A DNA stretch of 64,000 bases from an uncultured Chloroflexia bacterium (GCA_963765765.1 CAVXYC010000030.1:128001-192000); one strand, 5' to 3'. Counted from the stretch's first letter, positions 4,741 to 50,415 are shown. Program-made: numbers and translations. The notes: generated by a model from the sequence alone, not told the origin.

Positions 4741-5133
4741 GGCGCCTCCTTCACTGTTGTGCTCTCCTTCATTGAAGGCAGAAGTGGGTCAGCGTGTCAA
4801 TCTTTGACCGCTTGGGGCAAAAGTTCGGAGTTGTAGGGACAATCCACCGGGCTACGACGATCATCGCCTGGCTCTCCCCCTACCTCTAAGCGGGTAGGGG
4901 TTGGGGACTGGCGAACAGCAAGGCCCGGTGCGGGATTGGTCGGACGAGTCAATTACAGCGGCAGCCGATGTACGCGAGATCCCCTCGTTCCTCGGAATAA
5001 CGATGGCTGGGCACGTATCCGCTGCTGGTTCAAAGCGTCCCGAAACACGCGAGCGTATGGTGCCCGGGATGACACGGTCACTTGTGGGGGTTTAGTTTTC
5101 GCGCGTCCACCTCGGTAGGCAGGCAGGTCTTGA

Positions 5134-8404: not shown

Positions 8405-9547
8405 TTAGTTGATGCCCAGCAGCCGCTGGATGTTGCCGCCGAGGATGTTGTCCTTGTCCTGCTGGGACAGGCCTTCCATCTCTTCCAGGCCGGCGGCGGT
8501 GTTGGGGTAGGTCGAGGGCGGGTGCGGATAGTCGCTGCCCAGAACGAAATTCTCGCTGCCAATCGAGGAGATCGCTGCCGCGAGAGGGCCCTCGTCCGGC
8601 TCGGCGGCCACAAAGCATGAGCGACGAATCAGATCGCTCGGCTTCTCGGTGCAGCGCGCGCACTGCGGCTCCACGCCGTAGACGCGGTCGAGTGTGTACA
8701 TCGCCCACGGTAGCCATGAGCCGCCGGCCTCGAAGAAGACGAACTTGAGGTTCGGGAACTCTTCCAAGGACGCCACCGAGGTCAGGCTGGCCATGCCAAC
8801 CATGTACTCAAAGGCGAATCCCAGATAGTTGCTGATGTGCAAACGGCGCATCCGCTCCCAGCCCAACGTGTAGGTGGAGGGCAGATGGTCGCGCACCGAG
8901 CAGTTGAACGGGTTGTGATGCACGTAGAGCACGGCGCCAAGGTCGTGCACCGTTTTCCAGAAGGGGTACAGCTCGATCTCGTCGTAGTTGCGACCCTGCC
9001 AGTTGCCGTTGATGCAGATGATCTTAAGGCCCAGCTCCTGGACAGCGTAGCGAGCCTCATCACAGGACTCCTCGACATCGCGGAAGGGAACGACCGCTGT
9101 GCCTATGAACTGCTCAGGGAACTCTTTCTGCGCCTTGGATGTGGCCACGTTGAACGCGCGGCAGAGTGCGTGGGTCATGCCCGGCTCCGCCTGTCGGGCC
9201 AGCGGCGATCCGAATGGGTTGGCGTAGATTCCGTCCGGAATCAGCACCTGCATATCGAAGCCGGTCTCGGGGAGCAGCTTGGCACGATCAGCCACAACGC
9301 CGTGCCCGACGGGGCCACCACGAGCCGCGGCAGGAGCGCTACCGGCCAGTCGCTGCCCGGCCGCGGTGGCTCGGAAGCCAGCGTTGCGCGCATTTGGATT
9401 GGTAAATACTGATACATCGCGCTCAACCATCTGCAGCGCTTCTGGACTGAGATACGGGAGCGCGGTGCCGAGATCGATGAAATCGGCTGGCGGAAAGAAA
9501 TGACTATCCGCGTCGATCTTACGCAGCTTGGGTACTGCCTGAACCAT
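8405..9547 (-). CDS. Amidohydrolase family protein (Amidohydro_2, LigW/ACMSD-like)
   Basis: IDADSH, LYVHH, FFEAGGSWLP, GSDYPH motifs. Confidence 0.9.
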   Translation of the reverse strand: MVQAVPKLRKIDADSHFFPPADFIDLGTALPYLSPEALQMVERDVSVFTNPNARNAGFRATAAGQRLAGSAPAAARGGPVGHGVVADRAKLLPETGFDMQVLIPDGIYANPFGSPLARQAEPGMTHALCRAFNVATSKAQKEFPEQFIGTAVVPFRDVEESCDEARYAVQELGLKIICINGNWQGRNYDEIELYPFWKTVHDLGAVLYVHHNPFNCSVRDHLPSTYTLGWERMRRLHISNYLGFAFEYMVGMASLTSVASLEEFPNLKFVFFEAGGSWLPWAMYTLDRVYGVEPQCARCTEKPSDLIRRSCFVAAEPDEGPLAAAISSIGSENFVLGSDYPHPPSTYPNTAAGLEEMEGLSQQDKDNILGGNIQRLLGIN

Positions 9548-17760: not shown

Positions 17761-18114
17761 GTGACTGATTACTCGTCGCTCCTGGTTTACCTTGCACTGG
17801 TGGTCTTGTTGGCCGGCTTCATATTGCTGGTTATCGGCCGCCTATCTCCGTCGCGCCCATCGGAGGCTAAATCACGGCCGTACGAATGTGGTGTCTCAGA
17901 ACCTCAGCCTACGGCGGCCCGTTGGCCGATTCATTTTGCGCTCGTAGCCATGCTCTTCTTGATTTTTGATGTTGAAGCGTTGTTCTTCTATCCCTGGGCG
18001 GTCATCCTGCGGGAGCTCCGCTGGAATGGAATTCTGGCATTCTCGGGGTTCTTCGCCGTTCTCGGCGTGGGCTATATCTACGCTCGATCTCGGGGCGCGC
18101 TGAAATGGCGCTGA
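17761..18114 (+). CDS. nuoA: NADH-quinone oxidoreductase subunit A
   Basis: PYECG, FLIFDVE, GALKW. Confidence 0.95.
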
Positions 18115-18599
18115 ATATGGCAGCGTCGGATGGGCCGGGCCATGAGAAAGACGGAGCGCATGGATTCCTGCTCTCAAAGCTCGAGAGCTGGAGCCGTGAG
18201 AAGTCGCTCTGGCCGGTCACATTTGGACTGGCGTGCTGCGCTATCGAGATGATCTCCACATCCGCGGCGCGCTTCGATATCGCTCGCTTTGGATCTGAGC
18301 TTTTTCGACCCAGCCCACGTCAGGCGGACCTCATGATTGTCTCAGGCCGTGTGTCCCAAAAGATGGCGCCTGTACTGCTCGAGATTTACAACCAGATGCC
18401 GGAACCAAAGTGGGTCATCGCCATGGGCGATTGCGCCGCTTGCGGAGGCATCTTTAACAACTACGCGATCATCCAGGGTGTGGATAAGATCGTTCCCGTA
18501 GATGTGTACATCCCAGGCTGCCCGCCGCGTCCGGAGGCCTTACTCGACGGCATCATCAAATTGCAGGAGCGCGTCCACGAAGGTGCGACGCGCGCATGA
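18105..18599 (+). CDS. nuoB: NADH-quinone oxidoreductase subunit B
   Basis: [23 protein letters not shown]. Confidence 0.97.
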
Positions 18600-19060
18600 C
18601 CGAGAGGCTGGATCAGGCGCTCGACTCGCTGACGCTCACGGATCTCGAGCATGGCACGTCCGCGGATGGCATTGATTTTCTACGGGTTCCGGTGGATGCC
18701 ATACCGAGGCTGGTCGATGCAGTGATCGGCGCAGGATTTGGTCGATTCATTGATCTGACGGCTGTGGACGAGCCGCGTCGGGCCGATCGCTTTGAGCTCC
18801 AATACCTCCTTCACTCTATGCAGGATCAGCGTTGGCTGCGCCTAAAGGCGCGCACCGCCGAGCACGCGCCATCGATCGTAAGTCAATTTGAAGCGGCCAA
18901 CTGGTACGAGCGCGAAGTCTTCGATCTGTACGGAGTGTGCTTCGATGGACATCCGGGGCTTACTCGAATTCTGATGCCGGACGATTGGGACGGGCATCCG
19001 CTTCGCCGGGACGTGGATCTGGGCGGCGAGCCGGTTCAGTTCTCGGACAACATCTCGTGA
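18596..19060 (+). CDS. nuoC: NADH-quinone oxidoreductase subunit C
   Basis: [29 protein letters not shown]. Confidence 0.95.
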
Positions 19061-20331
19061 GTATTGAGACGCGCCCGGGTGCCGCTGAGATTGCCGAAGC
19101 GATGAGCTCAACGTTGACGCCAAGCCCGATGAACGGCAAGGGACCGGGCGTCGATTCGTCGACCGCACCTCATACCCTGCGGATCAACATGGGACCGCAG
19201 CACCCCTCGACCCATGGTGTGCTGCGTCTAGAGCTCGAGCTGGATGGCGAGATCGTAGTCTCCTGCAAGCCCATCATCGGGTACTTGCACACCGGCACCG
19301 AAAAGACCATGGAGAACCTGACGTATCTCCAGGCGCTGACTGTGACGGATCGCCTTGACTACCTGAACCCGATGGGCAACAACCTGGCGTATTCGCTCGC
19401 TGTCGAGGCTCTGTTCGACTGCGAGATTCCCGAGCGCGCCATTATTGGTCGGGTTCTGCTGGCCGAGCTGACGCGACTAAACTCGCATCTCGTCTGGCTG
19501 GGCACTACCGGGATCGATCTGGGCGCCAGCTCCGTGCTGCTCTATACGTTTCGCGAGCGTGAGGTCCTACTGGACTTCTTCGAGTCGCTTAGCGGCGCGC
19601 GCATGATGACCAGCTTTATTCGGCCCGGTGGTCTGGCCGATGATTTCACCGAGGATTGGTTCCAGGGCGTAGGAAAATTTCTTGATGACCTGCCGGCCCG
19701 AATCGACGAGTACGAGGCGTTGTTAACTCACAATCCCCTCTTCAGGGACCGCATGGTGGGCATTGGTGTCCTGGATGGACAGCGTGCGCTCAGCATGGGG
19801 GTTACGGGTCCGATCCTGCGAGCCAGCGGCATATCGCACGATATTCGGAAGGCGCGTCCGTATTCGGGTTACGATCAATTTGACTTCCATGTTCCCGTGG
19901 GCTCCCACGGTGATGCGTATGACCGATATCTGGTGCGGATCGAGGAGATGCGCGAAAGCGTGAAGCTCTGTAAGCAAGCGATAGCCAAATTGCCCGTCGG
20001 CCCGGTAAAGACCTCCAATCGGAAGGTGATGCCACCACCGCGAGAAGAGCTCGGACAGTCTATGGAAGCGGTGATTCACCATTTCAAGCTGTGGACCGCC
20101 GGTATGACGCCTCCGGCTGGTGAAGCGTACATCCCCGTTGAGTCCCCTCGTGGAGAGCTGGGTTTCTATGTCGTTAGCGACGGTTCAAACAAAGCCGTGC
20201 GGGTGCGCGAGCGAGCCCCATCCTTCGCCAACCTGCAGGCGCTGCCGATCATGGCGCAAGGCGGCCTGGTAGCCGACCTCATCGCAATCATCGCTAGCAT
20301 CGACCCGGTCCTGGGGGAGATCGACCGCTAG
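19057..20331 (+). CDS. nuoD: NADH-quinone oxidoreductase subunit D
   Basis: NMGPQHPSTHGVLRL, DRLDY, ESPRGE, GEIDR; GTGA overlap with nuoC. Confidence 0.97.
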   Translation: MSIETRPGAAEIAEAMSSTLTPSPMNGKGPGVDSSTAPHTLRINMGPQHPSTHGVLRLELELDGEIVVSCKPIIGYLHTGTEKTMENLTYLQALTVTDRLDYLNPMGNNLAYSLAVEALFDCEIPERAIIGRVLLAELTRLNSHLVWLGTTGIDLGASSVLLYTFREREVLLDFFESLSGARMMTSFIRPGGLADDFTEDWFQGVGKFLDDLPARIDEYEALLTHNPLFRDRMVGIGVLDGQRALSMGVTGPILRASGISHDIRKARPYSGYDQFDFHVPVGSHGDAYDRYLVRIEEMRESVKLCKQAIAKLPVGPVKTSNRKVMPPPREELGQSMEAVIHHFKLWTAGMTPPAGEAYIPVESPRGELGFYVVSDGSNKAVRVRERAPSFANLQALPIMAQGGLVADLIAIIASIDPVLGEIDR

Positions 20332-20334
20332 CCG

Positions 20335-20907
20335 ATGGCGATCCTATCTGAAACCACCGAGGCCAGAATCCGCACCGAGGTGGAACGCTATCACCCGCAT
20401 TATCGAACGGCACTCCTGCCGTCGTTGAAGCATGCCCAGGCGGAGATTGGCTGGCTGCCGGCCGAAGCCATAGCCAGGGTGGCGGATCTCGTCGGTGTTT
20501 CGCACGCCGCGGCGGCTGAGCTTGCGCAGTTCTACTCGATGCTCCACACCGAGAATCACGGCCGTGTGCACGTCGAGGTGTGCGTACAGGTGCCGTGCGC
20601 GGTGTCTGGAGCTGAGCGATTGCTGCGATGGCTCAGCGAAGAGCTGGACATTCCACCGGGCGAGACGACAGCCGAGGGTATTCGGCTGGAGCGCACGTCC
20701 GAGTGCTTCGGCTCCTGTCATCGAGCGCCGATGTGCAGGGTGAATGAGGACTATCACGAAAACCTGACTCGAGATTCGGCCCGCGAGCTCGCGAGCACGA
20801 TTCGGGCGCGGCTCCTGGCCGAGAATGCTGCCCTCCAGGGTGTTGGCGTCGGTCGCGCCACCTCGGGCTCCACACCGCAGGAAAATGACGGAGAGCTGAC
20901 GTGGTGA
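20335..20907 (+). CDS. nuoE: NADH-quinone oxidoreductase subunit E
   Basis: FYSM, CxxxxC and CFGSC 2Fe-2S ligands. Confidence 0.93.
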   Translation: MAILSETTEARIRTEVERYHPHYRTALLPSLKHAQAEIGWLPAEAIARVADLVGVSHAAAAELAQFYSMLHTENHGRVHVEVCVQVPCAVSGAERLLRWLSEELDIPPGETTAEGIRLERTSECFGSCHRAPMCRVNEDYHENLTRDSARELASTIRARLLAENAALQGVGVGRATSGSTPQENDGELTW

Positions 20908-22190
20908 TCGACTATCAGCCCGTGCTTATTCCCAATCAGGGCCGCCCGACGCCGCTCTCGCTGCAAGAGTATCGCGATAAGGGTGGGTACCAGGGGCTCG
21001 AGACGGCCCTGACCAAGATGACGCCCGATGAGGTTATCGACGAGGTCAAGGCGGCCGGATTGCGCGGTCGAGGCGGCGCGGGATTTCCGACTGGATCGAA
21101 ATGGAGCTTTGTTCCACGAGATCCCGGGCCCAAGTATCTGGCCGTGAACGCGGATGAGTCTGAGCCAGGAACATTCAAGGACCGCGAGATCATGGAAACC
21201 GAGCCGCACATGCTGCTCGAAGGCATTGCGATCTGCTGCTACGCCATTGGCGCTCAGACGGCGTTCATCTACATCCGCGGTGAGTATGTGGTGGCAGCCG
21301 ATCGGTTGGACGCGGCAATCGTTGAGGCAAGAGAAGCCGGATTGCTGGGCGAGGGCATACTAGGCACACAGACCAATCTCACGGTTCACGTGTTTCGTGG
21401 CGCGGGTGCTTATATCTGCGGCGAAGAGACGGCGTTGCTGGAGTCGCTGGAAGGCCGGCGACCCATGCCGCGCTCGCGGCCCCCCTTTCCGGCTGTCGAG
21501 GGCCTGTACCGTCGCCCCACGTGCGTCAACAACGTGGAGACACTGGCCAACGTGCCACACATTCTCGCCCGAGGTAGCGCCTGGTATCAGTCGGTGGGTG
21601 AGCCGCCCCAAAATACTGGCCCGAAGATCTTCTGCCTCTCCGGTACGGTGAATCGTCGCGGCAACTACGAGCTGCCGTTGGGTGCGGTTACCGTCCGCGA
21701 GTTGATCGAGGACTATGGCGGAGGTGTCCCGGAAGGTCGCAAGATCAAGGGCGTCCTGCCGGCCGGCGCTTCTGCGCCGATTCTGCCTGAGTCAGCGTTG
21801 GATGCCAAGCTCAGCTATGACGGCATTCGCGACGCCGGCTCCATGCTTGGCTCGGCCAGCTTCATCGTGCTGGATGAGTCGGTGTGCATCGTGCGCGCGG
21901 CCGCTCGCATGGTGGAGTTCTTCCGCAATGAATCCTGCGGCAAATGCACGCCTTGTCGAGAGGGGACCATGTGGCTGCATCAGGTGCTTCTGAGGCTTGA
22001 ACGCGGGCGGGGCACGGAAGCAGACCTGGATCTACTGTTGTCTCTCTCGGGCGAGGTGAGCGGCAAGGTGTTGTGCGCGCTCGGTGACTTCGCCACGAGT
22101 CCCGTGACGGCTACGATCAAGCACTTCCGCGATGAGTATCTTCAGCACTTCGAGCTGGGCCATTGTCCCTCCGAGGACTGGGCGAATTGA
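20901..22190 (+). CDS. nuoF: NADH-quinone oxidoreductase subunit F
   Basis: GLRGRGGAGF, NADESEPG, GAGAYICGEETAL, ESCGKCTPCREG. Confidence 0.97.
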   Translation: MVIDYQPVLIPNQGRPTPLSLQEYRDKGGYQGLETALTKMTPDEVIDEVKAAGLRGRGGAGFPTGSKWSFVPRDPGPKYLAVNADESEPGTFKDREIMETEPHMLLEGIAICCYAIGAQTAFIYIRGEYVVAADRLDAAIVEAREAGLLGEGILGTQTNLTVHVFRGAGAYICGEETALLESLEGRRPMPRSRPPFPAVEGLYRRPTCVNNVETLANVPHILARGSAWYQSVGEPPQNTGPKIFCLSGTVNRRGNYELPLGAVTVRELIEDYGGGVPEGRKIKGVLPAGASAPILPESALDAKLSYDGIRDAGSMLGSASFIVLDESVCIVRAAARMVEFFRNESCGKCTPCREGTMWLHQVLLRLERGRGTEADLDLLLSLSGEVSGKVLCALGDFATSPVTATIKHFRDEYLQHFELGHCPSEDWAN

Positions 22191-24064
22191 GCGACCTCGT
22201 TACGCTCACCATTAACGGGCGCGAAGTCCGGGTACCCAAGGGAACCTTGGTAGTCGAGGCCGCGAAGCAGGTCGGCATCGAGATTCCAGTGTTCTGTTAC
22301 CACCCGAAGCTCAAGCCTGTTGGCGCCTGCCGTATGTGCCTGGTTGAGATCGAAAAGATGCCCCGTCTCCAGACCGCCTGCACTTCGCCGGTGGCGGAGG
22401 GCATGGTAGTGACAACGACGTCCGATCAGGTCATTCAGGCGCAGACTGGTGTCATCGAGCTCCTGCTTGCCAATCATCCGCTGGACTGTCCGATCTGCGA
22501 CAAGGGTGGCGAATGCCCGTTGCAGGACAATACCTTCAACTTCGGTCTGGGCGTCAGCCGCTTCACCGAGGAGAAGCGGCAAGCCGAGAAGGCGTTCCCA
22601 CTTTCCGATCGCATTCTCCTGGATCGCGAGCGCTGCATCATGTGCTACCGTTGCGTGCGCTTCCATCAGGAGATTCCCGGCGACGAGTCCCTGGCCGCGA
22701 TCAATCGCGGCGGCCTCACGGTCATTGGCACGCTCGAAGGCGAGTCGTACGACTCGCTGTTTTCCGGGAACACTATCGATATCTGTCCTGTGGGAGCGCT
22801 GACCAGCCGACAGTATCGGTTTCGCGCGCGCCCATGGGATCTCGATCGGACGCCGTCCATCTGCTCGGGCTGTGCCGTGGGCTGCAATACCGAGATTCAC
22901 AGTCGCCGAGGCGACGTCCTGCGGCTCGTTCCGCGCGAGAACCTGGAAGTCAACGACGAGTGGCTGTGCGACGCGGGCAGGTTCGATTCGCTGCCGCCAC
23001 TCTCGGAGCATCGTCAGCTCGAGCCGATGGAGCGGGTTGACGGTCAGATGCGTGCGACGACCTGGGATCAGGCATTGGACCGCGCGGCCGACGTCATCCG
23101 CACCCAGGGTATAAGACTGGCCGTGGGGCCAGAAATCTCGAACGAGGCGATCTGGGTACTCGAAAAGATTCATACGGCGTTCGACGGTGAAAGGCAATCA
23201 ACGCCGACGAACCCCTGGGTCTTGCACGGGCGAATGGAGTCACTTGTTGGCTGCAAGCTCATCGTCCTCGTTGGCCTGGATCCGTGGACGGAATTACCGA
23301 TCCTGGCTCTCTGGCTTCGGAAAGCTGTGGCCGCCGGAGCAAGGCTCATCGTTATTGGCGCTGAGAACGGTCTGCAACGCGACACGGCGCACTGGATTCG
23401 AGTGCCGGCGGGCGAGGAGACGGCTGTATTGCAGAGACTCATGTCAGATCCCACAACTGTGAGTACGGAGCAAGCTATTCCAGATCCAAGCGTTCTGGAG
23501 GTCTTTCACGGACGTCCCGCGGCTGTGCTGGCTGGCGCTCGGATTGGACAGGATTCAGACGCGCTGGCTGCGACGCGCGCACTTGCAGAGCGGCTGGAGG
23601 CTGTCTTTGGTGATGCGCCGGTGGGCATTCCGTCCATTGGCGCAAATGCGCGCGGCCTACATGACCTTGCGCCCGAGATTCCGACAACCGCGGGCTCGGC
23701 TTGTACGCTACGGTTCGGAGATGGTGTCACGGGTCCACGCCCACTCAACGGCGAGTCAATACAGGCTGCCTACCGAGCCGGCGCGGGGGATGTAGGAAAC
23801 TTGGTCGTGCTGCTTCCCCTGGCGCATCCCTACGAGCAAGACGGATCGTTCACCAATCTGGAAGGTCGAGTGCAGCTGCTACGCGCCGGTGCCCGCATGC
23901 CGGGTCAGGCGCTGGCTGACTGGGAGCTCGCGGTGAGATTGGCGCAAAAACTCGATGTGCCGGTTCCGGCAGACCTCGAGTCCATTCGTGCCGATATAGC
24001 CGCGGCGCACGCCGACTATGGACGCACGCTGTTGAGACCGGTGCTGGAGCCGACGCGTGACTGA
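22187..24064 (+). CDS. nuoG: NADH-quinone oxidoreductase subunit G (short, about 625 aa)
   Basis: [44 protein letters not shown] (N7). Confidence 0.95.
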
Positions 24065-25040
24065 GCTGGCCATCGATGTTATCCGCTCGGCTGTGCTCAT
24101 TCTGATGCTGCTCACGGGCATGGCGTACATGACGCTCTTTGAGCGGCGTGTCATCAGTCGAATGCAGGTCCGACTCGGTCCGAATCGCACCGGCCCATCG
24201 GGCTTGCTGCAGCCACTCGCGGATGCGCTCAAGCTGTTTTTCAAGGAAGACGTCGTCCCGGCAGCGGCGGATCGTTTGATCTACCCGATCGCGCCGGCGC
24301 TTGCGCTCATCGCAGCGCTCGCTTCATTCGCGGTTATCCCGTTGGGCCCACCGGTTGAGCTTGGCGGTGTGACGATCGCCCCGCAAATTGTCGATCTCCC
24401 GGTCAGCGTGCTCTATCTCATTGGCGCCAGCAGCCTTGGAGTGTACGGGGTCGTGTTCGGCGGATGGGCATCAGGCTCAAAGTACTCGCTTCTGGGCGGT
24501 TTACGCGCGGCCGCGCAAGTCGTTTCTTACGAGCTGATCCTAGGGCTTGCTGTCGTTGGCGTGGTGATGATCAGCGGCACGCTGGCTCTAGGGGGGATCG
24601 TCGATGCGCAGTCGCGCTCTGTCTGGTACATCCTGCTCCAACCGCTAGGATTCGCGCTGTACTTCATCGGCGCCGTGGCAGAGGTAAACCGTGCGCCGTT
24701 CGATTTACCTGAGGCAGAGACCGAGCTGGTGGCCGGCTATCACACGGAATATAGCGGGATGCGCTTTGCGATGTATTACATCGCCGAGTACGTCAACATG
24801 ATTACGGTCTCCGCCGTGGCGGCGACGCTCTTCCTGGGTGGTTGGCTGGGACCCTTTGTACCCGGCCCGCATTGGCTGCTGTTAAAGATGTTGGCGTTTC
24901 TCTTCTTGTTCGTCTGGCTGCGCGCGACACTGCCGCGGCTTCGCTATGACCAGTTGATGGGGCTTTCCTGGTCGGTACTCTTGCCGCTTGGACTGCTGAA
25001 CGTGGCACTAACGGCGCTGGCCGTTGCCGCGTTCGGTTAG
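24057..25040 (+). CDS. nuoH: NADH-quinone oxidoreductase subunit H
   Basis: [38 protein letters not shown]. Confidence 0.97.
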
Positions 25041-25054
25041 AAGGAGAACAGCTC

Positions 25055-25630
25055 GTGTTGCTGGATAGTGTGCGCGCGGTCGCACTCGGCTTCTGGACAA
25101 CGCTCAAGCACACGCTGCGGCCCCCGGTCACGCTGTCATATCCGGAAGTCAAGCGCCAGCCGGCACTCAAGTTCCGCGGACGGCACCGACTTTATGCCAC
25201 TGAAGATGGATTGGAGCGCTGCATCGGCTGCGAGCTCTGTGCGGGGGCATGCCCGTCGCAGGCGATCCTCGTTGAAGCCGAAGAGAACGATCCCGAACAT
25301 CCGGTATCACCCGGTGAGCGTTACGCGCGACGGTACGAAATCAACATGATTCGCTGCATCTTCTGCGGTTACTGCGAGGAAGCGTGCCCTGTGGATGCCA
25401 TCAAGCTGGGGCCGGAGTACGAGCTCTCCGATTTCAACCGTGAGAGCTTTATCTACACCAAAGAGATGCTGCTGGACCCCGAGAAGTACGCTCCTCGCAA
25501 CCAGTATCACGCGGACGTGGACCGCTCTATCGACGAGCGCGGCGTCCACACGACGCTTCTCGAGACATACCGCAAGCACTATCCCAGCAGTACATATGAG
25601 GACGCTCCTGAGGCGAGGGAGCGGCGCTAG
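25055..25630 (+). CDS. nuoI: NADH-quinone oxidoreductase subunit I
   Basis: CIGCELCAGACP and CIFCGYCEEACP. Confidence 0.97.
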   Translation: MLLDSVRAVALGFWTTLKHTLRPPVTLSYPEVKRQPALKFRGRHRLYATEDGLERCIGCELCAGACPSQAILVEAEENDPEHPVSPGERYARRYEINMIRCIFCGYCEEACPVDAIKLGPEYELSDFNRESFIYTKEMLLDPEKYAPRNQYHADVDRSIDERGVHTTLLETYRKHYPSSTYEDAPEARERR

Positions 25631-25631
25631 C

Positions 25632-26127
25632 TTGCAGGACCTTTTCGTCCCCGCGGCGATCGTCGCGGCGCTGACTATCGCCGGGGCCCTTGGCGTTGTG
25701 CTTTCTCGCCGACCAGTGCACGCTGCCCTGGCGCTGCTGGGACACACCCTGGGTCTCGCCGGTTTATTCCTGGTGCTCTCAGCGGAGCTCGTGGCGATGG
25801 GGCAAATCGTGATTTACTCTGGCGCCATCGTGGTGCTTTTCCTTTTTGTTGTGGCGCTGCTTCCAACAGGCGGATTCGATGGGCGCGTTTGTCTCCGGTC
25901 GCGCTGCTTCGGCGTTGGTCATGGTGGCTATCGTTCTCGGGACGCTGGGCGTGGTGATCGGAGTGGGCGCCCCTGTGGCGGCGGCGACGACAGATCACTC
26001 CGTTGAATCGGTTGGTCGCGCACTGTTTGACCAGCTCATTGTCGCATTTGAGCTCACCGCACCCCTGCTCCTCGTGGCAGTGATTGGCGCCGTGGTGATC
26101 TGGCGCCGGCAGGAGCGGGTGCGATGA
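25632..26127 (+). CDS. nuoJ: NADH-quinone oxidoreductase subunit J (frameshift near 25875-25905)
   Basis: QIVIYSGAIVVLFLFV; C-terminal AFELTAPLLLVAVIGAV in the second frame. Confidence 0.9.
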
Positions 26128-26169
26128 GGGTTGCAACATCGCGGCTAGTCAGTTCAATGGTCGTCTCAA

Positions 26170-26472
26170 TTGACCACTGAAAACCTCCTCCTCACCACCT
26201 CCGCGATTCTCTTCGCGATCGGTATCGGAGGTGTCCTCTATCGCCGCAATCCGATCTCGCTGCTCATGTCGATCGAGGTCATGCTCAACGCGGCCAATCT
26301 CCTCATTGTCCTTGGTGCTCGGGTGCATGGCGCTGCGACCGGGCAAGCCGTGGCGCTGATTGTCTTGGTGGTTGCGGCCACCGAGGCCGTTGTGGGCCTG
26401 GCGATCGCATTGGCGCTCTTCCGCGATCGTGAGGGCGCTGACATCGATGAGCCCAGCGAGGTACACGGTTGA
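26170..26472 (+). CDS. nuoK: NADH-quinone oxidoreductase subunit K
   Basis: RRN..LMSIEVMLNAAN, VAATEAVVGLA. Confidence 0.95.
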   Translation: MTTENLLLTTSAILFAIGIGGVLYRRNPISLLMSIEVMLNAANLLIVLGARVHGAATGQAVALIVLVVAATEAVVGLAIALALFRDREGADIDEPSEVHG

Positions 26473-28186
26473 GCGGATTGCTCCTCTGGGGCTGGCTGTT
26501 CACGTTGCCCGGTCTGCTTCTTACAGCGTCAGGTTTAGGGCGGCCGAAAGGTGTTTTGAGCGTGCCGGGCCCGGCGCGGTGCTTGGTCTCGTGGCGTTGG
26601 TGGCACTCGTTTCCGGCGGTGGCGCGGAGGCGCGCTTTCCCGACTGGCTGCCATTCCTGCCCGACGGCGCGTTCCATCTGCGCGCCGATTCCCTGGCGGC
26701 GGCGATGCTGACAGTTGTGGGACTTGTCTCTACCGCGGTTTACGTCTACTCACTCGGATACATGAAGGGCGACCCTGGCCAGGCGCGCTATTTTGCTTTC
26801 CTGGACCTGTTCTTGGCGGCCATGACGCTCCTGGTTCTCGGCGGTAATCTGGCTGTTTTGCTCATTGGTTGGGCGGGCGTGGGTCTGACAAGCTTCCTGT
26901 TGATCTCATTCTGGAATAGCAGACCTGATAGTCAGGATAGGCCGTTGAAGGCTGGGCTCCAGGCGCTTACGGCGAACGCGATAGGCGACGCTGCCCTGAT
27001 GCTGGCGATCGTGCTATTGCCGGTTGGCTGCGGCGACTTGACAACGCTGCAGACCGGCCAATGCACGGCGGGTCTGGCGGGCCCGGGATTGCTCGGAGCT
27101 CTCATTCTCATTGGTGCCTGCGCGAAGTCAGCTCAGGGGCCGCTCTACTTCTGGCTACCTAGCGCGATGGCGGGTCCCACGCCAGTGAGCGCACTCATCC
27201 ACGCAGCCACAATGGTCGCCGCGGGTGTGTATCTCCTGGTGCGGACCTCGCCGCTACTGGCACTCTCCCAGTCGATACTCAACGCGACCCTTATCCTGGG
27301 TGTCGCGACGGCTATCCTGGCAGCCTTAATCAGCCTTTTCCAGGGCAACTTCAAACGCAGTCTGGCGTACTCAACCGTGAGCCAGCTCGGGTTCATGTTC
27401 GCGGCGATTGGCCTCGGTGCGCCGTTCGCGGCGTTCTTTCACCTGGTGACGCATGCCTCGTTCAAGGCGCTTCTATTTCTCTCAGCCGGAAATGTCATTC
27501 ACTATAGAAACGGCGAAGAGCAGCTTGCGAATCTCGGCGGTCTGCGACGCGCGCTCCCATGGGCTTACGCGGGCTTTCTCATCGGCTCGCTGGCGTTGAT
27601 CGGCGTTCCTTTCACTGCCGGCGCATTCAGTAAGGACGCAATTTTGGACGCTGCGCTGCAACGAGGGCCGATAGTGGCCTGGCTCCTCGCGGGAGCCACC
27701 CTCCTTTCCGGTTTGTACAGCGGCCGCTTGTTCTTCGGCGTGTTCCACGGGCCTGAGTCCCAGCAGCATGCGGGTGAAGGGCACTATGAGACTGAGCCCG
27801 CGACCATGCGCTGGCCACTCGTTCCCCTGGCTGCCGGTGCCCTCTTGCTTGGCTACCTCGAATGGCCGAACGCAATTCTGAGTCAGCTACTCGCTGGCGC
27901 TGTGGAACATGCGGAGCCGGTTTCCGCCATCAGCCCAATCGGATTGGCGGCATTCGCGCTCGGGATAGTCGGCTTTGGTGCTGCCGCCTTTTGGCGCGGA
28001 AAAGTCGTATCTTCGATTTCCACCGAAGCGGAGCCCGTTGGCGTTCGCTGGGTGGAGCCAATCGCAGCGGCTGCGGAAGGTATCTCGCGCTCGCTCGCCA
28101 GTGTTCACAGCGGTCATCTGGGCCGATATCTGCTCGCCTCACTCATCGGCATCGTGGCGATCGTCTGGATTGGACTGCGAGGATGA
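26469..28186 (+). CDS. nuoL: NADH-quinone oxidoreductase subunit L, short C-terminal helix (frameshift near 26570)
   Basis: KSAQ.PL..WLP.AMAGPTPVSALIHAATMV, LAYSTVSQLG, THASFKALLF, FSKD, terminal SG..Y + TM16. Confidence 0.93.
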
Positions 28187-28304
28187 GGCGGATATTCTGT
28201 GGTCTGCGGCGGCCTTCGCCGCCTTTCCGAGAGGCTGGAAGCCGGCCACGACGAGGCTCCACTTGTCAAAAGTGCGGCGAAAACCGTCGCAGTCCAAAAT
28301 TGGG
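28187..28304. repeat. REP/MITE-like palindromic insert flanked by an 11-bp direct repeat TGCGAGGATGA
   Basis: Direct repeat at 28176-28186 and 28305-28315; arms TGGTCTGCGGCGG ... CCGTCGCAGTCCA. Confidence 0.6.
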
Positions 28305-28340
28305 TGCGAGGATGATCGCGTTCCCGAGAGTAGCCTCATA

Positions 28341-29670
28341 ATGCTCTCCTCCATTCCGCCCCACTTAATGGCCGTTATTGTGCTTGTAATTGGCGCGCTT
28401 GTCATTCTTGCATGCGCGGCTCCTCTCACTCAGCGCGCCGGGCTGGTCTCGGCATTGACGTTCATTGCGGCCGTCTGCGCGGGCCTCGTGGGATTTAGCG
28501 ATCCGACGACACGTATTGCTACGCTGGGTCTGGCCGGCGTGGCCGCGATTGTCGGCCTTCTAGTGCCCACATTGGAGCTCGAGCTACCTGCGCAACGACC
28601 CGAATCGGCAGCGCTGGTGCTGCTGGGAGCGAGCGGCGGAGTTGCCCTCGCCGCCGCGGGAGATCTCTTGCAGCTCGCGGTCGGGCTTCGAGGTACTCTC
28701 TCTGAGCGCTGTCGTGCTCATTGGTATGAGCGCTGGCCGCGCACCCGTCGAGGCGGCCTTCAAATATTTTGTGTTGGCTACCGTGAGCTTGTCAGCGCTG
28801 CTCTTTGGTCTGGGGCTGGTCTACCTGGCCACCGGAAGCATTGCGTTCCCAAGCCTCTCGGGGTCGCCCTCGCCCTTAGTGGTCGCGGGTATTGCTCTAA
28901 TTGGCGTAGGGATCGCGTTCGAGCTCGCCCTAGTCCCTCTCCATTGGGGACCGCTTGGTGCCTATACGGCTGCCTCGCCCGGTATTGCTGGTTTTGTCAT
29001 GGCCGCCTCGAAGCTTGCCGCGGCACTGGCTCTTGGCCGGCTGGCGTTGGCGGCGGGCGTGGAGCTCGACGACGTGCTCGCCGTCATAGGAGTGCTGAGC
29101 ATTGTCTGGGGAACGGTGGGGGCCCTGGCTCAGCAGGACCTTCGACGACTTCTGGCCTACTCAGCGGTCGTCCACGCAGGGTTTATTGCGCTCGCTGCCG
29201 GTTCGGGTGTTGAAGGACGAATAGCCGCGGCTTTTTATGGACTCAGCTACGCTGCCATGTCACTGCTCACATTTGCCGCCATCTCGGGGCGAGGCTCCGG
29301 AGCCGTGCCACTTTCACGACTGACCGCGGAAGGGCTGGGTGCCGGCCGCTCCCTGGCGCTCACGTTGGCACTCTTGTCGCTGGCGGGGGTACCGCCCACC
29401 CCAGGCTTCTGGGCCAAACTAGCCGTCCTCGGTCCGGCCTGGACTAACGCGGGACCACTGGTCACGACTATCGCCGTGGCCGGCGGTGTGGCAGGTGCCC
29501 TGTACTACCTCAAACCTATCCCGAACCTGCTCGCGTCGCTTCGCCTACCAGAAGTGGCGCGACCCACGTCGCGCTCAGCTATGATGCTGGCTGGCGTGGC
29601 CGTCACGGTTCTGGGCATTGTGCCTGGCGTAGCGTGGGCGCTGGCTATCCTGGCCACGGGCACGCGCTAG
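28341..29670 (+). CDS. nuoN: NADH-quinone oxidoreductase subunit N (frameshift near 28688)
   Basis: EVLSL, EAAFKYF, ASKLA, RRLLAYS.V.HAG, SLAGVPP..GF.AK, YYLK. Confidence 0.9.
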
Positions 29671-36510: not shown

Positions 36511-37530
36511 CTATTTCGCGCCGTTCCAATAAGCAAAGCCCATGGCGTTGCCCGTGCCAGCGATTGAGCGATAGCACGGCTGGAAATCGACCAGTGACAT
36601 CTCCAGATCGCCATCCGCCATGGCTCCTGCAAGGGCGATCCAGTTGCGGATCTCCGATGTGCCCGAATTGAATCGATCCCGAGGCATGTTCATGAGCGCC
36701 TCGTCGTCCTTCTCGCGGAACGCGTTCAGGACCATCTCGTCGATGTCTTCCTCAACAACGAAATGGGTCAGGCCGCCGGAGGCGAACACAGCCACGGTCT
36801 TATCGCTGTCCCACTCGCGGATTGCTTTACCGATCGACTTGCCCAGCTTGTAGCTGCGACGAAGCGTCGGCTGGTTGGGTGGGTAGAAGGTATTGATGAA
36901 GACGGGCACGTTCGGCGGGACATTGTCGTGCATGATCCGACGGTAGACGAAGCCGTAGGCATGCGGAATGGACGGATGCTCGTGCCGGCCCTGAGGAAGC
37001 TGGTTGAAATGGCTGACGTCGAACTCGTCGTCCATCAGTGTGCTGAGCATGGTGGTGGCCAGGTCCGGTGCCCCTGAGATCTCCATCGGCTCGGGCGGTG
37101 AGTGCCCCCAATTGGCTATAGCAATGCCGGGCGGCATCTTGGCCAACTCCTCTTCCGTGGGGGCCTGATTCATGAACTTGTCCCCCCAGAAGACCGCGAA
37201 GGCCGGCATGTTTGTGTCGTGGAACAGCTCGCGCTGATCGTCGCCGATGATCACGCAAACGTCCGGCTTGACCCGCTCAACGACCTCCGCAAGCTGGTCG
37301 ATTGCCTTCTGACAGGCCGTGTGACGGGCCTCCATCTTCTCAGGAGTGATCTCGTTTTCGAGCTTCTCGTCGCGACGCAGGTCAACGAGCTCGTCAAACG
37401 TGACGTTCTTGCCCTTGAACCACAGCTCGGAGCTGCGCTTGTCCGCCTGAACCCGCTGATCCCATTGCTGCCAGGGCGTGCTCAGCATCGGGCCATGCGA
37501 AGTGGCCACGCCGAGAACTATGTTCGCCAT
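36511..37530 (-). CDS. LigB-family extradiol dioxygenase, DesZ/LigZ-like
   Basis: GVATSHGPML, GDDQ.E, PHAYGFVYRRIM, NTFYPPNQP, ASGGLTHFV, PCYRS.AGTG.AMGF. Confidence 0.88.
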   Translation of the reverse strand: MANIVLGVATSHGPMLSTPWQQWDQRVQADKRSSELWFKGKNVTFDELVDLRRDEKLENEITPEKMEARHTACQKAIDQLAEVVERVKPDVCVIIGDDQRELFHDTNMPAFAVFWGDKFMNQAPTEEELAKMPPGIAIANWGHSPPEPMEISGAPDLATTMLSTLMDDEFDVSHFNQLPQGRHEHPSIPHAYGFVYRRIMHDNVPPNVPVFINTFYPPNQPTLRRSYKLGKSIGKAIREWDSDKTVAVFASGGLTHFVVEEDIDEMVLNAFREKDDEALMNMPRDRFNSGTSEIRNWIALAGAMADGDLEMSLVDFQPCYRSIAGTGNAMGFAYWNGAK

Positions 37531-37737
37531 CGCTCAATCCTCCTCAGTTTCGTACGCCCCCGCGAACGCTGGCAGAGGCAGGAAGGGCCAATAATCGCGG
37601 CTTCGAGCCGCTGAGAGATTCTACCGCCGCAACGCATCTTGGCGTGAACGAATCAAACTCCCTCGTGGCGCGGGGCTCTGTGTCCGCCGGTCATCACGCC
37701 GGGCATTGGCGGGTACCCACGCCACCGGAAAACGGCC

Positions 37738-38752: not shown

Positions 38753-41458
38753 TTAGCTGTGCGGCCTAGTGTACTCGGCCGGGAAGATGATGTCCCGTGG
38801 TGATTGGGCGCGGAGCGAGCCACCCAGAGTGAACTGCCAGACTTTTTCGGGAACGTTGCTCCAGTAGGCCACGTCATTCAAGTAGACATCCGACGTGGAT
38901 TCTGCGAGACATTCGAGTGCTTGCTCGCACGTCATACCCATGGCCGCCGCACCCGTTTCGATGACATGCAGTTCTGCGGGTGTGTACTCGCGCTCGACAC
39001 GCTGCCGGCGGCGCCCATGAGAATTCCGCTGGTTACTACATATCCCCAACGGGCAGTAACATCCAGGTCACTCGCCCCTGGGCTCAAGGAGTGACTCCCA
39101 AGAGCGGTCAGCGGCGCAATCGAGCGAAGCTCAAGGCTAACGGTGCCTGTGGTTACGCCAGGAACCGCCTCTTCCGTACTTTGAAGCATGGCGAGTCTTC
39201 GACCCAGATTCGACGAGCTCTCGAGAATTCCAGCCGTCGCTGGGAGAGGGACGCGGGGCCAGTTGTCGCGCATTGCCTCTCCATTCTCATGCATGTAGAG
39301 AGGAGCAGACCCAACAGCCAGAATGTGCGGCCATATCGGTAGGTTGTGTCGATCCCACTTCGTTGCTCCAGCGAGCTCGAGCTGGGCGATGTAGGCATTG
39401 GCGCGCATACTCAGATTCGGTTGGGGTGAATCGATAACGCCATCACTCGACTCGAACAGTCCTGGCTGCGTTTCGGATGATTTCGAAACATCCCTTATTT
39501 CAAGTGGAATGTAATACGCGTCCTTCAGAAAAGCATGATCATCGCCGAGTATTATGGCAAGGCCCTCATCGCTGGCTACTGCAATGCGACGCGTAACGAC
39601 AAATGCGTTTCCATTCCAGAGTTGGGCCGAATAGGCTGGTCGCGGTTCATTCCAAATGGGGCGAACTGTCGTGTGGTAGCACCACCTGGCATCGAACGGT
39701 AGGACCATGAACCTTTCGATATGGCCCGAATCAAAGCCTTCCCTTGCCATAAGCAATTTGCGGGCAGATTTGGCGTCGAAGCGTGCAGCGTCCGTAGTGA
39801 GACTGGGAACGATTGCACGGGCGGAGTCCCAGTCGATTGTCGGGTCAAGATACTGGCGCATTCGGTGTTCAAGCACGTCGCGCTAGATACTAATCAGCGC
39901 GCCTTTGCGCTTTTCCACAGCGCCCGGAAAAGGTTTCACCTCTCGACAGTTCATTCACACGAGGCCAACTGAGATAGTCTGCAGAGCTCTGTTCAGGGCG
40001 AAACGAGAATCGTGTCGCCTCGACTGGATTCGCAGTGGTGCAGGTCGACAGGGTCGAGCTAGAAGACTTGAGATTTCCGATTAGATCTGAGTGTTTTTCC
40101 ACTCCCCAGAACTGTCGAAACTGCACTGAAGTTGCGGGAGTATGACTCGGGTTGTGCACGATGAGAGCGATGGCTGTGCCGACGCGAATCCCCTCGCGGT
40201 TGTACTCCGTCGAAAACACGATTGGATCAGGCTTTCCCTCGGCTGTTAGCTTTCCCGTTTGTCGGCTATCACCATTCAAGCAGTCGATCCGAACATCATC
40301 GAACGCATTGAGCAGGCGTTCACGCAAAACGACGAAGGAAGCGTCACTCAGGTAGGAGAAATTCGAGATGTAGCAAACCACGCCCCGCCCCGTCTGTTCC
40401 GCCACGCAACGCTCTGCGATACGAAAGAACCGGACGTAAAGGTCATCGAGATTGAACTTCTTGAGATTCCACTTCTTGACCAGGCCTACTTTGTAGGGCT
40501 CGACAAGCCCTTGCTCCTCTTTCGGGCTGACACCCGCGTAAGCGTTATACGGCGGATTGCTCAGGACCACGAGTACGCGGGTGTGACGTTTCACCCGATC
40601 GCCGGCGTCTCGCTCCGCCTCCAACTCCGGAAACATGAGGTGAGTGCGTGCCCCGGTGGGGGTCTCCCAGCCGGTAAGCGAATTCGTGAGGTACACGCCC
40701 GCCCGTTCGGATCCATCATCGGCAAAAGGAGCCCCAATGTTTTGGAGCATCAAACCTAGCTGGAGATGGGCAACCACGAACGGCGCGGCAAGGAGCTCAA
40801 ACCCGAAAATGCGCTCCCGGGCGGCGCGCTTCACATCATCCCCAACTAATGCATCGCCACCATTTTCCAGCAGCGTCCTGTGTACACGCTTGAGCACTTC
40901 AACGAGATATGCTCCCGTACCACAACACGGATCGAGCACGACTACCCTAGGGTCGGCCAACCCATCGGTAATCGATAGCTCTTCACGGAGCGCGCGGTCC
41001 ACCCGCTCCACCATGTACTGAACAACCTCAGGCGGAGTAAACCACACGCCCATTGCTTCGCGCAGCTGAGGATCGAACTCCTTCAGAAATGGTTCGTAGA
41101 AGTACTGCACTGCCAGCCCGGTATCCAAGCGCGTGAAGAACGCGGCGCGGTCAACGCGGTGCAATGTCTCGCCAACCCAATCGAGTAGCTCCTCAAGGTT
41201 CTGCGGGCGCAGCCGAGACGGAATCGCGAGTTGACTGAAATGCGTACTAATCACTGGGACTCTCAGGTGCCACACCGCAGTTCGCCAGTCAAAGTGTGCA
41301 CCGGCCGTTTGTGGGTCGGACTTACTCCACAACACCGAAACAATGGTGGGATTGCGAGCAGCGCCTGAAGTAGTCGTAATGGGTCCTGAGTCAGTTTCGG
41401 TGGCAAACAGCAACTCGATGTTGTCAAGCAGAACGTTCTCAGCGGAGTCATTCGCCAC
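38753..41458 (-). pseudogene. Type IIG/ISP-like restriction-modification gene (N6-adenine MTase plus C-terminal specificity domain), fragmented
   Basis: FYEPFL..FDP, GVWFTP, LDPCCGTG, NPPY, DLYVRFFR; C-terminal PFD.RW, PRVPLP, VW.FTLGG in separate frames. Confidence 0.8.
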
Positions 41459-41818
41459 TACTTTGCCTACATACCACCGATGGGAATCGCTCGCTGCTTC
41501 TCGTGAGCTCGAGCCTTCGCTCCGCGAGTTGAAGGCTTAGATTGAGTCGTAGCTGGTCACGATCAGTGGAGAGCCGAGAGATGCCGCTGTCTCGCGCGAG
41601 CGCGGTGGACCCACGGGCTGGACGAGCCGACAGTCGCAACGGCCGCGTTGTCCAGAGGCGGTCATCAGGTGCGCGAGGCGGTACGTCAGACTGGTAATTG
41701 CTCAACGGCAGATGCCTCGTACCGAACGATTAGGCCAGTTAGACAGCTTGAGAGAGTGGGGCCTAGTGTACTCGCACGGAAGTGAGGTGCGCGACGGCCT
41801 GGGAGTGCTCTGCGACAT

Positions 41819-42985
41819 CTATCGCTGCGCCACTGGCTCCTTGAAGTACACCGATGAGCTCGGCAGCTCTTCGGGCTTGAAGCCAAAGAAGCGCGCCGCG
41901 TTATTCCCCAGAACCTTGCGTAGGCGAGTGCCATCGCCAGTGAGCGTCCGCGCAATGGTATTCACGGATTCAGGAAACTCGCAGTCCCAATGCGCGTAGT
42001 CTGACGCGTACATGACCTGGCTCTCGCCGACGAAGTCCAGAACGTAGGGCAGCGTCTGCTCCTCGGGCTCGCAGGTGAAGCTGACTTGATCACTGCGGAT
42101 GATTTCGGACGGCTTTCGCTGCAGGTCAGGCCACTGTGGCCGAAGCTTTTCCTGGTGCTCGTCAAGTCGCTCCATCCAGAAGGGAAGCCAGCCGCAGCCG
42201 CCCTCCATGAAGGCAACCTTCAGGTTGGGAAAGCGATCGAACACGCCCTCGCCAATCATGTGCATGAGCGCGATCATGAGCTCGAACGGAAAGGCGGTAA
42301 CGTGGACGTAGCTGTACTTCTCCATCCGCTCGCTGCCCGCGCCCATGACGCCTGAGACGCCGTATTGGCCGTCGTGACCCGTCTGCGGATGTACAGAAAG
42401 CGGAATGCCAAGCTCCTGCGCCGCCTGGTAGATCGGATCGAATCGACGATCACCGAGATTGATCCCGTACACATTGGTCGGCAACATCGCGCTGGCAAGC
42501 CCATGCTCAACAAGGAAGGCCAGCTCTTCCGCGGCTCGGCTCGGGTCCTGGCAGGGAATGAGCCCCACACCCTTGAGTCGCTTGGGGTCAGCCGAGCAGT
42601 AGTCAATGAGCCAGCGATTCACGGCGTGGCAGACGGCCGTCGAGAGCCCCTTGTCCTGGAGGCCGTTGACCGTGAGCGCGATGGACGTGCCAAAGATGAC
42701 CGCGACGTCTATGCCCTCTTCGTCCATGTCGGGCAGTCGCTTGCTCGCGTCGCGCATCCCGGGCCGTGAACCCACGATGTGCGGAGCAAACGGGCCGCTC
42801 ACACCTGGACCGAGGCCCTCGCTCTTGCCCCACACCCGACCCTCGAGCAGCATTCGAGGTTGGCCCAGATTGTCAGTGATTTTCCTGGGCGCTCGACTTA
42901 CATACTCCGCGGGCAGCCAATCCGCCAGTCCATCCTCTGGCTCCTGGCAATGGCCGTCGGCGTCGATAACAAGGTCAATGGGCAT
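41819..42985 (-). CDS. Amidohydrolase family protein (Amidohydro_2)
   Basis: IDADGH, DMD.EGID, SVHP, FMEGGCGWLP, ASDYAHWD. Confidence 0.92.
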   Translation of the reverse strand: MPIDLVIDADGHCQEPEDGLADWLPAEYVSRAPRKITDNLGQPRMLLEGRVWGKSEGLGPGVSGPFAPHIVGSRPGMRDASKRLPDMDEEGIDVAVIFGTSIALTVNGLQDKGLSTAVCHAVNRWLIDYCSADPKRLKGVGLIPCQDPSRAAEELAFLVEHGLASAMLPTNVYGINLGDRRFDPIYQAAQELGIPLSVHPQTGHDGQYGVSGVMGAGSERMEKYSYVHVTAFPFELMIALMHMIGEGVFDRFPNLKVAFMEGGCGWLPFWMERLDEHQEKLRPQWPDLQRKPSEIIRSDQVSFTCEPEEQTLPYVLDFVGESQVMYASDYAHWDCEFPESVNTIARTLTGDGTRLRKVLGNNAARFFGFKPEELPSSSVYFKEPVAQR

Positions 42986-50412: not shown

Positions 50413-50415
50413 GCA

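Follow-up and report, generated by a model that had tools for sequence, protein, structure and literature searches.

Canonical complex I, as represented by Nqo1-14 of Thermus and the Nuo enzyme of E. coli, has 14 subunits, among them three antiporter-like membrane subunits, NuoL, NuoM and NuoN. Here we describe a nuo operon, nuoA-B-C-D-E-F-G-H-I-J-K-L-N, which lies on the plus strand at positions 17761-29670 of a 64,000-nt stretch of DNA from an uncultured Chloroflexia bacterium (GCA_963765765.1 CAVXYC010000030.1:128001-192000; the window, to which all coordinates refer unless another record is named) and which contains no nuoM. The operon has the canonical gene order and shares all modules but NuoM with the canonical enzymes, with NuoD, NuoF, NuoG, NuoH and NuoI scoring above their NCBIfam cut-offs and the NuoL core fitting a solved NuoL with a Z of about 52. 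It differs from them in the absence of NuoM, in the length of the NuoL segment that carries the lateral helix (~35 residues compared with ~77) and in the replacement of two charged residues, the glutamate of transmembrane helix (TM) 5 in NuoL and the lysine of TM7 in NuoN. In canonical enzymes the TM5 Glu and TM7 Lys form Glu-Lys pairs that are thought to gate proton transfer.

A change in the number of antiporter-like modules is already known in the opposite direction from the 2M complex I, with the gene order nuoL-M1-M2-N, whereas the operon described here has no nuoM at all. The 2M enzyme was reportedly described by Chadwick and colleagues in 2018 (ISME J) from Chloroflexi, Nitrospira and others, and its NuoL helix is said to be lengthened. 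Its occurrence in Chloroflexota is documented (PMC7117926, PMC12342949). In membrane architecture the closest system is the Mrp antiporter, where a NuoL-like MrpA and a NuoN-like MrpD are braced by the helix HL running from TMH15 to TMH16 (PMC7419157), a pairing of an L-like with an N-like subunit that resembles the one found here. The Mrp complex, however, has no redox modules, its MrpA carries extra C-terminal domains and it includes MrpB, MrpC, MrpE, MrpF and MrpG, whereas here NuoA to NuoK are encoded in the operon and a full NADH:quinone oxidoreductase carries the pair.

The number of antiporter-like modules also varies among membrane-bound hydrogenase (MBH), membrane-bound sulfane reductase (MBS) and formate hydrogenlyase (PMC8165549, PMC7684303), but these enzymes and the 11-subunit complexes have hydrogenase-type or other electron modules in place of the NuoEFG and quinone modules present here. 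An 11-subunit ‘C-I-like’ class lacking NuoEFG was recognised in a 2025 survey of ~11,000 species (PMC12361115), which distinguishes complete, CD-fused, BCD-fused, N-module-less and ‘incomplete’ classes, with no M-less class in the part of that paper available. A Yarrowia subcomplex lacking ND4 and ND5 works at a lower H+/e- ratio (10.64898/2026.10.02.756245), although this is a fragile laboratory truncation of the distal end, whereas in the operon described here the middle subunit is gone, NuoL is kept and the arrangement is natural and conserved. Full-text searching, with most subscription journals outside its reach, turned up no report of complex I without NuoM, and a NuoM-less complex I with a matching short clamp appears not to have been described previously.

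Gene content, order and distribution

The operon probably encodes a genuine and conserved 13-subunit variant of complex I in which NuoM has been lost, NuoL packs on NuoN and the clamp helix of NuoL has been shortened. A 13-subunit, two-antiporter complex with a trimmed clamp helix had been proposed in a first-pass annotation of the window, and the proposal is supported by the adjacency of nuoL and nuoN, the length of the helix, the selection acting on both genes, structural superposition and a predicted NuoL-NuoN pair. An NCBIfam scan of 12 translated pieces of the operon, with NuoJ and NuoK identified by tblastn against a paralogous operon and against a genome of the same genus (G001), bore out the gene order and the absence of nuoM read in that annotation. 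All of NuoE, NuoF and NuoG of the N-module are present, the last two above the NCBIfam cut-offs, as are NuoB, NuoC, NuoD and NuoI of the Q-module and NuoH, NuoA, NuoJ and NuoK of the membrane heel, with both NuoK glutamates seen by eye in the window translation; of the three antiporter-like subunits of complex I the operon encodes only NuoL and NuoN.

The missing nuoM is genuine and not an accident of assembly, since nuoN directly follows nuoL in 22 of the 22 clade loci with downstream DNA. This count leaves out L022, which has no room downstream, and L024, a frameshift-rich assembly in which the K-L-N order is also present. Among the relatives the order nuoK-nuoL-nuoN was found in all 15 loci with enough room, with two genomes (G005 and G007) carrying the full A-B-C-D-E-F-G-H-I-J-K-L-N operon and a third (G004), whose contig begins inside nuoH, carrying H-I-J-K-L-N, in each case with every gene in one frame. 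In G004 an ATGA overlap joins nuoL (564 aa) to nuoN (444 aa), and the gene after them lies on the opposite strand. Of the 22 loci, 14 have nuoL and nuoN overlapping by 4 nt and two by 1 nt, and the genes are 2-27 nt apart in five and 115 nt apart in one, an arrangement that would make the two genes translationally coupled in most members. Both genes are under purifying selection: the ratio of nonsynonymous to synonymous substitution rates (dN/dS) for nuoL is 0.05 when the window is compared with G001 (dS saturated) and 0.10-0.37 in six clade pairs, and that for nuoN is 0.13-0.28 in five scorable pairs.

Orthologues of the window NuoL were sought in 40 relatives and in its own genome, and were found at 54-86% identity in every genome of three families of the organism's order (f1, 9/9, including the unpublished G006; f3, 11/11; f7, 1/1), with the short C-terminus included wherever the contig allows. 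In an evenly sampled set of 401 genomes of the phylum (E <= 1e-120) an orthologue was present in 16, these being the genome itself, the same three families (f1, 5/5; f3, 4/4; f7, 1/1) and f29, a family of another class (5/5, including the unpublished G079). None was found at this threshold in the other families of the sample, including four of the same order (f2, 0/3; f4, 0/7; f5, 0/1; f6, 0/3). Judged from record titles, the carriers are soil Chloroflexota, and the best public matches are metagenome-assembled genomes (MAGs) of Chloroflexota with a few labelled Planctomycetota or Deltaproteobacteria by their depositors. A profile of the NuoL tail run against 1.84 billion representatives gave 58 matches at E <= 0.001, 37 at E <= 1e-10 and one at E <= 1e-30, counts that are rough, most matches being fragments and the representatives being clustered at 50% identity, while a word-based protein search with the tail (residues 470-564) returned the query itself only. 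The tail type looks rare, and the variant is rare and patchy.

The gene following nuoL has NuoN as its best family (TIGR01770, 173 bits, against 66.5 bits for NDH_I_M). A rapid maximum-likelihood tree was built from 73 proteins of the L, M and N types, with long-branch joins between L and M flagged by the program. In this tree the 22 proteins encoded after nuoL in the clade form a single clade (Shimodaira-Hasegawa-like approximate likelihood-ratio support 100) within an N-type group that is itself separated from M and L with a support of 100. The possibility that this gene is a nuoM or an M-N hybrid was rejected on the NCBIfam families, the comparison of loci and the tree. For NuoL itself, the window piece 26678-28183 scores 425.8 bits against TIGR01974 (cut-off 407.5), and the best NCBIfam families are NuoL rather than MrpA (428 vs 233 bits).

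With the nuoL stop codon ending at 28186 and nuoN starting with an ATG at 28341, the two genes are 154 nt apart, as the first-pass annotation had stated. Its observation that no remnant of nuoM lies there also holds, the 154-nt spacer showing no antiporter-like similarity. The spacer is filled instead by a ~97-nt palindrome with a predicted hairpin of -57.1 kcal/mol (z -4.49), which blastn found again dozens of times, whole or in part, at 70-79% identity on many contigs of the same genome, often in both orientations, while no Rfam family matched it and the relatives lack this spacer. The spacer was accordingly rejected as a relic of nuoM, its sequence being a dispersed palindromic repeat.

The NuoL lateral helix and the predicted contact with NuoN

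The C-terminal extension of NuoL, comprising TM15, the lateral helix and TM16, is retained in the clade but shortened. The segment was measured, between the TM15 end and the Q of the QxG motif, in an alignment that combined 23 clade NuoL and 33 further NuoL drawn from the loci of public matches. Its median length is 35 residues in the clade (range 33-51, n=23), with an acidic insert in the three longest, and 77 in the others (n=33), every NuoL that has M and N after it having 65-80 residues. The canonical length of about 70 aa that the first-pass annotation had given thus stood up, as did the shortness of the window segment; its count of 34 aa (28004-28105) did not, 35 residues separating the final K of ‘..FWRGK’ from the first S of ‘SGHLGRY’. 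Compared with Thermus Nqo12 the window NuoL is 35 residues short in this part of the protein, query residues 469 to 502 corresponding to chain residues 500 to 568. When co-occurrence was tested, the short helix was found together with nuoL-nuoN adjacency in all clade loci, and homologues combining a short helix with a nuoM were absent among the loci compared.

An AlphaFold2 model of the intact NuoL of G004 (predicted local distance difference test, pLDDT, 89.2; predicted template modelling score 0.89) has TM15 at 484-502, a 17-residue linker, a 19-residue helix at 520-538 and TM16 at 543-563. Residues 2-545 of the model superpose on residues 1-557 of the 613 of E. coli NuoL (Z 52.0, root-mean-square deviation 2.4, 522 aligned). 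In the E. coli enzyme P552 is located between NuoL and NuoM with P564-N566 at the NuoM contact (Belevich et al., PMC3274701), and the superposition ends at 557, just past P552, which fits the loss of one subunit width. On this model the clade helix would retain the part borne on NuoL and turn into TM16 where the canonical helix begins to cross NuoM.

A pair predicted for NuoL (residues 31-564) and NuoN scored 0.61, the best of three controls scoring 0.00. The score mark is reached by 58 of 80 solved complexes and by two of 110 mismatched pairs, counts that apply only roughly here because own alignments were used, and the runs share at least 97% of contacts with a partner pLDDT of 80. In the predicted interface NuoL 134-181 faces NuoN 347-402 in the manner of neighbouring antiporter-like subunits, and NuoL 528-562, the end of the helix together with TM16, contacts NuoN.

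Two conserved charged positions have changed in the clade. None of the 23 clade NuoL has the TM5 Glu, which aligns with Thermus Nqo12 E132 and occurs in all 33 other NuoL; the residue there is Thr in 15, Ala in six, Ser in one and Met in one. The TM7 Lys of NuoN, which aligns with Nqo14 K186 and is Lys in 42 of 42 canonical NuoN, is Glu in 19 of 22. The remaining residues of the relay are kept, with the TM7 Lys, the first TM8 His, the TM8 Lys and the TM12 Lys-Asp of NuoL (K218, H323, K331, K387 and D388) present in all 23 clade proteins and the TM5 Glu, central Lys and TM12 Lys of NuoN (E116, K226 and K361) in all 22; the second TM8 His of NuoL is Gln in four clade proteins. In the Mrp structure the TM12 loop of one antiporter-like subunit touches the TM5 Glu of its neighbour (PMC7419157). 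In the predicted pair NuoL position 138 contacts NuoN 351, 352 and 358, and NuoN 351-358, which directly precedes the kept K361, looks in the model like part of the TM12 loop. The changed NuoL residue would thus lie at the very contact whose partner has changed.

A separate observation concerns two Bathyarchaeia MAG records (L100 and L101; L100:3-7056), in which an operon C-D-H-I-J-K-L is followed by one further antiporter-like gene, of the M or the N type, and then by unrelated genes. The NuoL-like protein of this operon has a segment of 53 residues against the usual ~77, which suggests that the same solution has arisen independently; judged from these records, the operon may be a second two-module arm with a partly shortened helix.

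Proposed mechanism and alternative readings

In the enzyme as we picture it NuoEFG would form the NADH-oxidising module, NuoBCDI the quinone module and NuoH, NuoA, NuoJ and NuoK the membrane heel. Only two antiporter-like subunits would follow, with NuoN adjoining the heel and NuoL directly on NuoN, and the clamp of NuoL would have shrunk to a short linker, a ~19-residue helix along NuoL and a TM16 anchored on NuoN. The charge network would have been rewired at the remade contacts, NuoL being without the TM5 Glu and NuoN mostly having Glu for the TM7 Lys. Such an enzyme would assemble without NuoM and would move fewer than the canonical four protons for each NADH, three being the simplest number, acting as a low-gear NADH dehydrogenase beside a second, 11-subunit complex-I-like enzyme. 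In the search of the genome for menaquinone synthesis PF02621 (MqnA/D) had no match and the best match to TIGR00173 (MenD) reached 85 bits against 244 in this 92%-complete, frameshift-rich assembly, and the thermodynamic ‘gear’ argument is an inference.

The second enzyme is encoded on contig C27 of the same genome (~143900-154560, minus strand), where a cluster A-B-C-D-H-I-J-K-L-M-N without E, F and G is of the 11-subunit type. The genome holds five antiporter-like genes, nuoL and nuoN in the window and nuoL, nuoM and nuoN on C27, with exactly one NuoM above the cut-off (569.8 bits), that of C27. A search of the whole genome placed its only NuoM in this second cluster, outside the M-less operon. 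The window nuoF is the sole NuoF-family match in its genome. In four of five relatives the single NuoF above the cut-off sits in the M-less operon, and in the fifth (G068) the best match, at 533.4 bits slightly below the cut-off, is also in that operon; four of the five have additional, weaker NuoF-like genes elsewhere. This placement of NuoF identifies the M-less enzyme as the NADH-linked one, beside an 11-subunit enzyme with three modules. In G005 two more antiporter-like genes (G005:C1:2196166-2200649) lie ~12 kb from the M-less operon and may belong to an Mrp-type antiporter.

A number of points weigh against a real NuoM-less complex with NuoL on NuoN. The lower H+/2e- ratio and assembly without NuoM are well-motivated predictions; the change of two pumping-relevant residues could mean that the modules are impaired rather than adapted. 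On family scores the intact NuoL of G004 is, at 401.6 bits, slightly below the TIGR01974 cut-off of 407.5 and its NuoN at 200.2 bits below the TIGR01770 cut-off of 332.6, though this is still its best family. The tail of the G004 NuoL model has a pLDDT of only about 50-60, and the predicted interface resembles the solved homologous L-M and M-N interfaces, such that passing the controls shows likeness rather than proof. Contigs assembled from the soil runs X1, X2, X3 and X24 were placed on the nuo region; none spans 28203-28613, the L-N junction and spacer, so that the junction in this genome rests on the assembly and on the relatives, and none covers the nuoL frameshift near 26574, the X24 contig ending at 26566. 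All 11 genomes checked (the genome itself, G005, G007, G011, G015, G017, G002, G021, G025, G068 and G056) have a separate NuoM-containing cluster as well as the M-less pair, that of G017 being cut by a contig end, and their gene content is compatible with NuoM supplied in trans. Lastly, three loci of other phyla (L078, L079 and L082, from Acidobacteriota, an unclassified bacterium and Myxococcales) have a full-length helix, of 75-76 residues where measured (L078 and L079), and yet an N-type gene directly after nuoL, with no nuoM in the following 2.5 kb and other antiporter-like genes on other contigs. Adjacency of nuoL and nuoN alone is therefore not diagnostic; adjacency together with the short helix is.

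Of the rival readings, the most probable, although we consider it unlikely, accepts assembly without NuoM but holds that the rewired residues have left one or both remaining antiporter-like modules no longer pumping protons in the usual way, whether inactive, serving as structural ballast or carrying another ion, with an output below or unlike 3 H+/2e-. The loss of the NuoL TM5 Glu to Thr, Ala, Ser or Met in all 23 proteins and the exchange of the NuoN TM7 Lys for Glu in 19 of 22 count in favour of such a reading, given the supposed gating role of the Glu-Lys pairs in canonical enzymes. The contact of the TM12 loop with the neighbour's TM5 Glu points the same way (PMC7419157). The central and TM12 residues are nonetheless kept throughout (23/23 in NuoL and 22/22 in NuoN), both genes are under purifying selection and both NuoK glutamates are present in the window, all of which speaks against it.

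It is less probable still that the complex is canonical after all, with the NuoM of the co-resident nuoA-B-C-D-H-I-J-K-L-M-N cluster inserted in trans between NuoN and NuoL. A true NuoM is encoded elsewhere in each of the 11 genomes, but it belongs to a complete L-M-N set of its own. The TM15-TM16 segment falls ~42 residues short of that in NuoL with M and N downstream, and it ends, by superposition, where NuoM would start, such that TM16 could not reach beyond NuoM. The model puts NuoL directly on NuoN, nuoL and nuoN appear translationally coupled in most members, and all 23 clade NuoL have a changed residue at the position that in canonical enzymes, by the Mrp contact rule (PMC7419157), meets the TM12 loop of the neighbouring subunit.

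The source genome is a MAG (completeness 91.8%, contamination 6.85%) of 33 contigs, the longest of 893 kb, and its nuo operon contains three frame changes, in nuoJ at 25880, in nuoN at 28689 and in nuoL, the first ~35 codons of which are out of frame with the rest; TM1 of NuoL is read in frame 0 (26469 to ~26573) and the remainder in the frame of the open reading frame (ORF) 26360..28186. All three sites are short G/C runs, the extra base in nuoJ having been placed by DNA alignment. The frameshifts are most likely assembly errors, of the long-read indel type, since two of the three are absent from the contigs of other soil runs (25880 in X1 and X3, 28689 in X1 and X2) and other genes of the window are also split; a MAG of 33 contigs reaching 893 kb fits with such errors. 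We do not take them for signs of decay, as the G001 proteins NuoJ and NuoL, both intact, align with the window on either side of the breaks, the relatives have the parts of nuoL, and likewise those of nuoN, contiguous in a single frame, and the splits occur window-wide. The soil metagenome runs contain near-identical pieces of the region; the RNA library X24 contributes two exact contigs of 151 nt (in nuoJ and at the nuoK/L junction), which do not show transcription.

Further split or truncated genes came to light when another 49 ORFs of the window were scanned with Pfam: TctA is broken into three and an AMP-binding enzyme into two (50413-51929; 60116-61751), a DUF5131 gene is without its last quarter (58007-58633) and a Type ISP restriction-modification enzyme has its methylase and C-terminal domains in separate frames (38935-41536). 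The orthologous operon of another relative, in a 20-contig assembly (L110, G030:C10:40000-58000), has several frame changes, in nuoD, nuoF and nuoG, and this is another error-prone long-contig assembly. The argument of the first-pass annotation against an assembly deletion of nuoM was correct, but it overlooked the three frameshifts and the second cluster. The reading of the operon as decaying, or of its gene order as an artefact in which the frameshifts mark pseudogenes and nuoM was lost by deletion or mis-join, draws on the fact that all three frame changes fall in a 3.4-kb run of genes for membrane subunits and none in nuoA-I, on the completeness and contamination of the MAG and on the unspanned L-N junction, but it is highly improbable and already largely refuted by the identical order with intact frames in independent assemblies of the relatives, dN/dS much below 1, the absence of two of the three extra bases from other runs, the spread of frameshifted genes across the whole window and a spacer that is a repeat element without any nuoM relic.

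Locus features, context and implications

The features of the operon are collected in Table 1. The start of nuoD is probably the GTG at 19057, overlapping the nuoC stop.

Table 1. Features of the NuoM-less nuo operon, in window coordinates.
Feature	Position	Strand	Evidence
nuoA	17761..18114	+	ORF; NCBIfam NuoA NF005922, E 7e-24, below cut-off
nuoB	18105..18599	+	NCBIfam NuoB NF005012, 238.6 bits, above cut-off
nuoC	18596..19060	+	NuoC family TIGR01961, 108.6 bits, below cut-off
nuoD	19057..20331	+	TIGR01962 NuoD, 550.9 bits, above cut-off
nuoE	20335..20907	+	TIGR01958, 132.6 bits, slightly below the 142.4 cut-off
nuoF	20901..22190	+	TIGR01959, 588 bits, above cut-off
nuoG	22163..24064	+	TIGR01973, 483.7 bits, above cut-off
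nuoH	24057..25040	+	NuoH NF004741, 358 bits, above cut-off
nuoI	25055..25630	+	NuoI NF004537, 169.3 bits, above cut-off
nuoJ	25596..26127	+	two frames align with the intact 176-aa NuoJ of G001; GGG run at 25880 contains an extra base, which shifts the frame
nuoK	26170..26472	+	ORF; 87% identity to NuoK of G001
nuoL	26469..28186	+	~571 aa with the frame change near 26574 read through; TIGR01974 NDH_I_L
NuoL Ala codon at the conserved TM5 Glu position (‘GW-E-GVG’)	26873..26875	+	alignment to Nqo12 E132
NuoL shortened lateral-helix segment, 35 aa, TM15 to ‘SG..Y’ motif	28004..28108	+	
NuoL motif and terminal anchor helix TM16	28109..28183	+	model of the G004 orthologue, helix 543-563
Palindromic dispersed repeat in the nuoL-nuoN spacer, like repetitive extragenic palindromes (REP) or miniature inverted-repeat transposable elements (MITE)	28200..28296	.	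not part of the enzyme
nuoN	28341..29670	+	~442 aa; extra base at 28689 in a GGG run shifts the frame
NuoN Glu codon at the conserved TM7 Lys position	28921..28923	+	alignment to Nqo14 K186

The window around the operon looks rich in genes of aromatic-compound catabolism. Three Rieske oxygenases with a LigXa-like C-terminal domain are encoded at 3406-4788 (-), 48637-49839 (+) and 62993-64000 (+), with two amidohydrolase_2 genes and a LigB-type dioxygenase at 8408-9547 (-), 36514-37533 (-) and 41822-43027 (-), and TctA/TctC transporter genes and a GntR/FCD regulator lie close to the aromatic-type genes.

Returning to the NuoM-less complex with its shortened clamp, it is possible, though we put this forward tentatively, that evolution can shift the number of antiporter modules in complex I like a gear, downward as well as upward, these organisms having a natural enzyme of ~3 H+ per 2e- with a rebuilt charge relay for NADH oxidation while the three-module 11-subunit enzyme takes a stronger reductant. 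The way in which complex I links quinone reduction to the pumping of four protons is debated, as is whether NuoL, NuoM and NuoN each eject a proton of their own or all protons leave via NuoL, and laboratory deletions of antiporter-like subunits give unstable enzymes (10.64898/2026.10.02.756245). If the reading is true, a natural, conserved and selected complex without the middle module, with its clamp helix cut to size and two relay residues changed, would be a clean system in which to discriminate between pumping models via its H+/e- ratio and structure. Surveys that require all 14 subunits would class these operons as ‘incomplete’. Taken with the 2M enzymes, the NuoM-less complex, if real, would mean that the module number of complex I has been tuned both ways, probably to the available driving force.

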